Of a stretch of 14,062 bases of DNA, positions 9,747-9,917 are shown in pieces. This DNA comes from Escherichia coli (lineage in GTDB: Bacteria > Pseudomonadota > Gammaproteobacteria > Enterobacterales > Enterobacteriaceae). Both the position numbers and the translations under genes were made by a program. The stretch lies in the NCBI RefSeq assembly GCF_003334385.1, contig NZ_QOWN01000066.1; one strand, 5' to 3'. Every line of letters begins with the position of its first letter. Position 1 is the first letter of the stretch. Below the pieces are notes generated by a model, which did not search any database, was not told where the DNA came from, and was given only the letters and a program-made list of their open reading frames with translations.

Positions 9747-9917
9747 CTACTGCTCATCAGGAAACAGTTTTTTCAGTTCTTCACCGGAAAGTCCGGTTGC
9801 CTCCTGAATCCGTTCCGGCGGCCAGCCCATATTCCAAAGCCGGCAGGCTATTTCCCGCGCCACTTCAAGAGCACCTTTTTCAAAACCTTTCTGTATAAGA
9901 CGTTCTGCAAGCGTCAT
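9747..9917 (-). CDS. Free-standing small protein homologous to the C-terminal tail of the adjacent Rpn nuclease (RpnS-like), 56 aa
   Basis: Start trimmed to the ATG at 9917..9915 because the ORF-track N-terminus (MPGFFVSRSRANS) lies inside the upstream terminator hairpin. MTLAERLIQKGFEKGALEVAREIACRLWNMGWPPERIQEATGLSGEELKKL parallels the Rpn C-terminus MTIAERLEQKG...ALEKALAIACQLQKMGMTPEQIKQATGLSDDELKK. Confidence 0.45.
   Translation of the reverse strand: MTLAERLIQKGFEKGALEVAREIACRLWNMGWPPERIQEATGLSGEELKKLFPDEQ

Follow-up and report, generated by a model that had tools for sequence, protein, structure and literature searches.

A small open reading frame (ORF) located directly behind the nuclease gene rpn (ygdB) on an IncI1-type plasmid of Escherichia coli encodes a diverged, free-standing version of the tail of Rpn; judging from comparative sequence analysis, it is a genuine, conserved protein-coding gene. 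We consider it probable that this ORF is a true rpnSs gene, which originated by duplication of a tail module and would be expressed by transcriptional read-through, and whose product would pair through its first helix and thereby tune or block the nuclease. The window analyzed here, i.e. the whole stretch of 14,062 nucleotides, contains the gene together with rpn; the features discussed below are collected in Table 1.

Rpn proteins with an intragenic antitoxin were recently recognized as a class of toxin-antitoxin and phage-defence systems. In E. coli K-12, each of the five rpn genes gives rise, by way of an internal start, to a small protein termed RpnS, which binds the toxic full-length RpnL and blocks it (Zhong et al. 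2023, PNAS, PMC10400941). The action of RpnS is reported to be cognate-specific, and in the case of RpnC one added repeat in either partner abolishes neutralization (PMC10400941). RpnA-S is a dimeric bundle of three helices, and its long first helix bears hypervariable 4-residue repeats; repeats of this kind combine one hydrophobic residue with charged ones or Gly and begin 8-20 residues past the Met, and their varying number is a hallmark of RpnS (PMC10400941). RpnS also occurs as a separate gene, both on chromosomes and on plasmids, and a second copy is found downstream of rpnE (ypaA, or "rpnESs", the protein product of which was detected) and of rpnC; each of these separate rpnSs copies groups with the tail of the gene upstream of it, and such copies can be lost via deletion or via fusion to the rpn N-terminal domain (PMC10400941).

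Table 1. Features of the rpn locus and its surroundings, with positions given as those of the window
Feature	Position	Strand	Remarks
nikB, nikA	low coordinates of the window		gene order from annotated relatives
yggA	after nikA	+	annotated relatives
ygfB (DUF4942)	8037-8888	-	annotated relatives
ygeA, gene for a small HTH protein	9465-9716	+	convergent with the small ORF
Hairpin AGCCTGGC-N5-GCCAGGCT	9728-9748		overlaps the stop of the small ORF; between the small ORF and convergent ygeA
Free-standing RpnS-type gene (C cassette, rpnSs-like), 56 aa	9747-9917	-	one 4-residue repeat (GFEK)
Leader of the free cassette, CAGCAGGAGCAGAGCAAACAGC	9918-9940	-	AGGAG at 9935-9931, 13 nt before the ATG
Intrinsic-terminator-like hairpin (9947-9967) with T-run (9946-9941)	9941-9967	-	after rpn
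rpn (ygdB), RpnL nuclease, 304 aa	9979-10893	-	profile matches and IncI1 annotation
Intragenic RpnS (A cassette), putative, 61 aa	9979-10164	-	three repeats (GRQE GRME GRME)
Promoter-like site within rpn (TTGAGA, 16-nt spacer, TAAAAT)	10439-10466	-	10 of 12 consensus matches
ygdA, ygcA	beyond rpn		annotated relatives; farther on ardA, psiA, psiB
Candidate Frpo/ssi-like single-strand promoter	11883-12128	+	upstream of ygcA-ygdA-rpn-small ORF; repeat and ssDNA fold

The rpn gene and its free-standing tail copy

The product of rpn matches PF04754 (Transposase_31) with an E-value of 4.6e-78, as well as the TIGR01784, RpnA and PRK09956 models; annotations of IncI1 plasmids list it as an Rpn family nuclease, and it shares 44-53% identity with RpnA-E of K-12. 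Within the tail of the gene, an internal ATG (10164-10162) is preceded by GAGGA (10176-10172) at a 7-nt spacing. By analogy with the layout of K-12 RpnA-E (PMC10400941), the A tail is a putative, internally started RpnS of the plasmid rpn.

The small ORF lies on the minus strand (ATG 9917-9915, TAG 9749-9747), begins 61 nt past the rpn stop and is translated into MTLAERLIQKGFEKGALEVAREIACRLWNMGWPPERIQEATGLSGEELKKLFPDEQ. The initial annotation had described it as a duplicate of the Rpn tail, and pairwise alignment agrees with this description and with its coordinates. By BLASTP, the 56-aa protein matches residues 263-321 of the 323-aa rpn ORF with 32 of 59 identities (54%, E 4e-16), from the internal Met (MTIAERLEQKG) to three residues short of the end, and the sole gap, of 8 residues, comprises two GRME repeats of the intragenic tail. 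At the DNA level, positions 9768-9877 were paired by the repeat search with 9991-10100 (75% over 110 nt), and the A and C copies are 74% identical over 141 nt if the repeats are excluded. The start Met of C is the counterpart of the RpnS internal start: in alignments, MT[LI]AERL falls on the MTIAERL of tail types A, B and D and on that of RpnA, RpnE and YpaA.

In searches against protein models, C matched positions 226-273 of 273 in TIGR01784 (E 7e-7), the C-terminal end of the RpnA model, positions 267-310 of 313 in phrog_3300 and, by sequence, RpnA-S (PDB 7TH0) with an E-value of 0.011. No significant match was returned by a Pfam-A scan of a 69-aa form of the protein, discussed below; precomputed annotations list PF27070 (HTH_Rpn_C) for many alleles, some of them as "faint", and the Pfam domain given for the tail in PMC10400941 is DUF4351 (PF14261). 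The Rfam scan of the window produced no match, and PADLOC made no call for Rpn or for the small ORF. The AlphaFold2 model of C contains helices at residues 3-14 and 16-29, with a kink at G15, at 34-41 and at 45-51, and its best PDB match is RpnA-S 7TH0 (probability 0.96, TM 0.56/0.67); with the moderate confidence that attaches to a pLDDT of 72, the prediction for C is a bundle of three helices, the first of them long.

By its homology, start Met, repeat alleles, predicted fold and position after rpn, the small ORF classifies at the sequence level as an rpnSs, and thus as a fresh example of a kind published in 2023, not as a new kind. The earlier proposal of a separate gene copy of an antitoxin-like tail can accordingly be put in established terms, the tail being the known antitoxin RpnS and free copies being the known rpnSs (PMC10400941). 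The hairpin behind rpn had also been said to overlap the N-terminus of the ORF, which is correct for the 69-aa form (ATG 9956) and incorrect for the 56-aa ORF. The 69-aa ORF was rejected as an artefact of ORF calling with an unconserved extension, and so was the coding capacity of the N-terminal extension in general (forms of 69-93 aa, which start in or before the hairpin): it is variable at the protein level and interrupted by a stop in the window, where an in-frame TAA falls within the region of the 21-codon extension (9918-9978). On other plasmids the frame is open still farther upstream, giving forms of 77-93 aa, the added residues of which vary freely. In most plasmids, an ATG overlapping the rpn stop (TGATGA) opens the in-frame 21-codon extension through the hairpin, as in locus L002 (3348-3581), which is why annotation pipelines call proteins of 69-93 aa.

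Cassette arrays, conservation and selection

The homology between the rpn and small-ORF regions continues past the stop codons, with AGCCCGGCA-AAA-TGCCGGGCT after rpn resembling AGCCTGGC-ATTCA-GCCAGGCT after the small ORF. This second hairpin (dG -19.7 kcal/mol, z -2.8) is homologous to the rpn terminator hairpin and is without a T-run; with respect to 9947-9967, its stem is preserved through a compensatory change, C:G to T:A. The hairpin is shared by ygeA, which converges on the small ORF. Two free tail genes stand behind the nuclease in ten contigs (L042-L051; e.g. L043 1973-2719), each of them preceded by the leader GTCAGCAGGAGCAGAGCAAACAG and then the ATG, and a hairpin with a T-run comes after each non-terminal one. 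The duplicated hairpin and leader, together with this layout, identify the locus as a tandem array of modules composed of leader, tail ORF and hairpin. At the level of nucleotide alignment, these comparisons show that the C cassette arose by tandem duplication of such a module, namely a short leader, a tail ORF and a G+C-rich hairpin. The arrays hold two or three modules.

The tails in these arrays differ in their repeats. Type A (GRQE/GRME) is the intragenic tail of the window and occurs either fused or free, type B (GIQK/GIQQ) is fused to the nuclease in some plasmids, type D is fused to the nuclease in ColIb-P9 and in an IncI-gamma/K1 plasmid, and type C (GF[DK]x), represented by the small ORF, is almost always free. 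The arrangements seen were A-fused plus C, B-fused plus C, D-fused plus C, and B-fused plus free A plus C. The A-specific 3' part was present in 1,512 plasmid records and B-like sequence in 482; the true B-to-A junction of three-cassette arrays was present in about 42, this number counting only the 42 records at at least 95% identity, as the junction query cross-matched conserved inter-cassette DNA elsewhere. The repeat number of C was unequal to that of the fused tail in all 13 of 13 arrangements.

The coexistence of free and fused tails suggests another role for C, as a reserve cassette serving mainly as a recombination donor, any protein made from the free copy being secondary. Recombination across the conserved 5' end (ATGAC..GCAGAACGTCTT) would fuse the nuclease to a downstream cassette with deletion of the DNA in between, and such a tail swap would switch the specificities of toxin and antitoxin together. 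Indeed, A is free after the B-tailed nuclease in L042-L051 (~42 plasmids) and fused in the window and in ~1,500 plasmids, and one nuclease-C junction exists. However, C itself is almost never fused, and that sole junction (P0196, a 67-aa product, found with a synthetic chimeric query) belongs to a rearranged and disrupted draft contig of Shigella sonnei (locus L053), so it serves only to show that a nuclease-C junction can form. No single-piece nuclease-C fusion was found among the top plasmid hits, in which both parts sit 531 nt apart as two pieces. Likewise, a search of 5.8 billion protein clusters returned no full-length Rpn with a C-type tail within its best 120 hits, all of 93 aa or less; in a library clustered at 50%, C-tailed full-length proteins could hide inside an Rpn cluster. 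In addition, the Shine-Dalgarno-like leader is conserved before the free cassettes, which would be needless for a silent donor. Overall, a role mainly as donor seems unlikely. One locus (L013, 1460-2731) has lost most of the rpn nuclease domain, has a DUF1281 gene upstream and retains an A0 tail fragment and a C6 gene; it may represent a natural "antitoxin-only" state.

Standalone Rpn-tail genes were sought on other plasmids and found in quantity, the C segment being present in 2,004 records of the plasmid collection. Of the full-length plasmid hits, 39 were sampled evenly, and in all 39 the C match overlies an annotated CDS that has a protein accession; the lengths of these hits depart from that of the query by multiples of 12 nt, with the exception of one 282-nt span, which would be explained by a 4-nt leader indel such as that seen in L043. 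This sample is free of the bias of retrieval through intact proteins; the loci used for pN/pS were fetched through intact proteins, which biases ORF integrity and leaves pN/pS unbiased. In ColIb-P9, exactly the 56-aa ORF is annotated. The known C alleles encode proteins of 52, 56, 60, 64, 68, 72 and 76 aa, with 0 to 6 GF[DK][EKQ] units inserted after residue 11. The C cassette evolves under purifying selection: its pN/pS is 0.18 over 13 distinct alleles (0.14 for the A tail, which belongs to a known functional protein), and the comparison of A with C gives a dN/dS of 0.36 at a dS of 0.65. A chance ORF was rejected on the conservation, annotation and selection data. In spite of the ~2,000 plasmids that carry it, databases still label the C gene a "hypothetical protein".

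The same data bear on the suggestion, made in the initial annotation, that the ORF could be the remnant of a second rpn gene. A decaying and functionless relic, whether of such a gene or of a past duplication, would be in keeping with the terminator before the ORF and with the lack of a promoter-like site after the terminator, and the analogous K-12 gene ypaA (L052 2317-2502) is flagged as a pseudogene by RefSeq, though the tagged YpaA protein was detected experimentally (PMC10400941). Against it, the alignment of the two regions revealed no nuclease-domain-like sequence flanking the small ORF. Only the tail module was duplicated, from the leader through the hairpin, and the flanking homology is not that of a pseudogene fragment. 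Moreover, the ORF is intact in all sampled plasmids, its length changes only in frame, and its pN/pS is low, as is the dN/dS between A and C despite their synonymous divergence, which makes a decaying remnant very unlikely and leaves it next to no probability.

Expression signals and the leading region

The strong terminator that the initial annotation placed before the ORF is borne out by both pattern and folding. Its stem consists of 9 bp with 7 G-C pairs, is followed by TTTTTT and has a dG of -21.6 kcal/mol (z -2.9), so that the pattern of 9947-9967, a G+C-rich stem-loop with a U-run, is that of a predicted intrinsic (Rho-independent) terminator. A hairpin follows every non-terminal cassette, and its stem is maintained through sequence variants. 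Among plasmids (L003-L060), the inter-cassette T-run is anywhere between 4 and 7 T long, with just 4 in the IncI-gamma/K1 locus L055; this variation could alter read-through and hence the amount of the free copy made.

The small ORF starts 24 nt beyond the T-run. The initial annotation had proposed to look for a promoter in this interval (9918-9941), which instead holds a conserved Shine-Dalgarno-like leader: the consensus scan of the window detected no sigma-70-like promoter between the rpn terminator and the small ORF, and a TTGTCA in the leader, checked by eye, is without a usable -10 element. The 13-nt distance from AGGAG to ATG is longer than optimal. In 54 loci, the leader is kept ahead of free cassettes of both types, C and A (with AGGAG, or with AGGGG at a shorter spacing). 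Since no promoter-like site follows the rpn terminator, transcription would reach C by read-through of this terminator, and the level of C would then be lower than that of the intragenic RpnS and separately adjustable from it.

Two sources of such transcription can be proposed. The first is the promoter-like site inside rpn (10466-10439), the hexamers of which are identical across 31 loci, with variation at wobble positions of the spacer. K-12 rpn genes have internal transcription start sites (PMC10400941), and by analogy this site might be a candidate start of a short RpnS transcript. The second is an ssi/Frpo-like single-strand promoter at ~11883-12128, which would be read from the incoming single strand during plasmid transfer.

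This second source is suggested by the plasmid setting. A search of the plasmid collection with positions 9400-11000 gave 2,040 matching records at 90-99% identity, mostly of conjugative IncI1/B/O, IncI-gamma/K and related plasmids from Escherichia, Salmonella and Shigella. Annotated relatives assign the window to the leading region of an IncI1-type plasmid, beside oriT. We take the plus strand to be the transferred strand here, according to the usual geometry of conjugative transfer, so that it serves as template for the genes on the minus strand. How the genes of leading regions are oriented with respect to the strands has been described in PMC11541004. A direct repeat of ~250 nt (9013-9261 versus 11883-12128, 94-95% identical) was found by the repeat search, and the plus strand near the second copy, folded as ssDNA, forms a long hairpin with a dG of -134.9 kcal/mol (z -9.7). 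From sequence and predicted fold, the two copies, located before ygfB and before the ygcA-ygdA-rpn operon, respectively, are likely Frpo/ssi class-1 single-strand promoters. In the IncI1 plasmid pESBL, ssi1-3 drive the zygotic induction of leading-region operons (pESBL RNA-seq paper, PMC12672017), and we infer that the operon ygcA-ygdA-rpn-small ORF is one of the zygotically induced operons.

Two neighboring genes deserve a comment. Just upstream of ygeA, a 42-nt direct repeat (9356-9397 versus 9423-9464, 83% identical) contains a GTGAA-N6-TTCAC palindrome within each copy, and these palindromes look like operators for autoregulation. ygfB (DUF4942, 8037-8888, minus strand) is the first transcribed-strand gene past oriT, and it matches phrog_6263 (E 8e-19), a phage family labelled DNA methyltransferase; its product may be an early-expressed methylase-like protein.

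Proposed action and comparison with known systems

In the reading that we prefer, the C protein would pair via its long first helix with the RpnL tail and/or with RpnS, and this pairing would tune or block the nuclease in the manner of RpnS. Over the first eleven residues of helix 1, A (MTIAERLEQKG) and C (MT[LI]AERLIQKG) are near-identical, B and D differing at at least two positions, which makes a heterotypic contact between A and C conceivable. On the other hand, the differing repeat motif (GF[DK]x versus GRME and GIQQ) and the never-equal repeat number make cognate pairing with the resident RpnL doubtful, and the retention of C with A-, B- and D-tailed nucleases alike argues against tail-specific pairing. 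Given the one-repeat rule of RpnC and the differing repeats of C, the "independent control of the nuclease" envisaged in the initial annotation becomes less simple.

The same conservation of C independently of the resident tail type would be expected of an orphan antitoxin serving in anti-defence or competition, which is made early and neutralizes the Rpn of the recipient or of rival elements, not that of the plasmid itself. The leading-region location, the T-strand-transcribed orientation and the position downstream of an ssi/Frpo-like element speak for this explanation, and orphan antitoxins have been reported to be enriched in leading regions, where they were proposed to act on toxin-antitoxin systems of hosts or rivals (PMC11541004). 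Nevertheless, C is closest to the A tail of its own plasmid (54%), its identity to the tails of RpnA, RpnE and YpaA being 35-44% (the three K-12 tails compared), a difference that fits a local origin. With this low similarity to the K-12 tails compared, and with no C-tailed full-length Rpn among the best 120 hits, such an antitoxin would be left without a matching target. The reported cognate specificity of RpnS (PMC10400941) and the location of the small ORF behind a terminator also weigh against it, and we hold it to be improbable.

A further scheme, which we regard as quite improbable, would make C a universal, tail-type-independent RpnS paralogue, non-cognate to the resident nuclease, produced from the single-stranded leading region within minutes of entry and acting in trans, where it either disarms the Rpn of the recipient or of a rival or delays the plasmid's own nuclease. 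If true, C would be an anti-defence protein that descends from the antitoxin of a defence system itself, or a timer on the plasmid's own nuclease.

The existence of separate downstream rpnSs copies, on plasmids among others, was already published in 2023 (PMC10400941), and the gain is therefore incremental. What is added here is the anatomy of the cassette array, the near-universal presence of the free C cassette in ~2,000 IncI-type plasmids and the mismatch in repeat number. IncI1 plasmids count among the major vehicles of resistance genes, those for ESBL included, and in ~2,000 sequenced plasmids the region that enters a new host first carries an Rpn gene and a conserved, additional antitoxin-like gene. 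Its recognition as rpnSs provides a hypothetical gene with a name and a testable role. Moreover, an array of alternative tails with never-matching repeats is a natural system for studying how repeat length sets the specificity of a toxin-antitoxin pair, and with it one can ask what the free copies do to the nuclease: regulate it, replace it or decoy it.

Several known systems can be compared with this locus. Silent cassette arrays, for example Neisseria pilS and the IncI1 shufflon for PilV tails, serve antigenic or specificity switching. By analogy with pilS and the shufflon, the rpn locus appears as one expressed gene beside which alternative C-terminal segments, sharing conserved 5' homology, are lined up in tandem, and its A cassette is seen both free and fused. 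Unlike silent arrays, the rpn cassettes carry their own translation signals, and no site-specific recombinase sites were identified; switching would proceed by deletion and would thus be one-way.

With the orphan antitoxins of leading regions (Samuel et al. 2024, Nature, PMC11541004), C shares a small antitoxin-type gene in T-strand orientation near oriT, among establishment genes such as ardA, psiB and those of the ssb type. It differs from them in having a complete Rpn toxin-antitoxin gene directly upstream, and Rpn is mentioned 0 times in PMC11541004. With intragenic RpnS proteins, e.g. RpnA-S (7TH0) and the plasmid RpnP2-LS, it has in common a putative HTH_Rpn_C domain, the predicted three-helix bundle and repeats in the long helix 1. 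Unlike them, C is encoded by a separate gene, so that the number of its repeats may drift away from the nuclease's.

The closest relatives are rpnE-ypaA and rpnCSs, in which a free RpnS-tail copy also lies directly downstream of rpn and starts at the internal-start Met (MTIAERL...). As in rpnE-ypaA, the repeat number differs from that of the intragenic copy, and the free copy is closest to the tail of its own upstream gene. K-12 ypaA has AAGGAG 7 nt before its ATG and one KLEG repeat different from the RpnE tail. It is 79% identical to its intragenic tail, the C cassette only 54%; and unlike rpnE and ypaA, which are separated by a 12-nt gap with AAGGAG at 7-nt spacing, rpn and C have a terminator-like hairpin between them. 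Also in contrast to rpnE-ypaA, the C cassette is plasmid-borne in a conjugative leading region, stands in arrays of up to three cassettes and is retained with whichever fused tail type (A, B or D) the nuclease carries.
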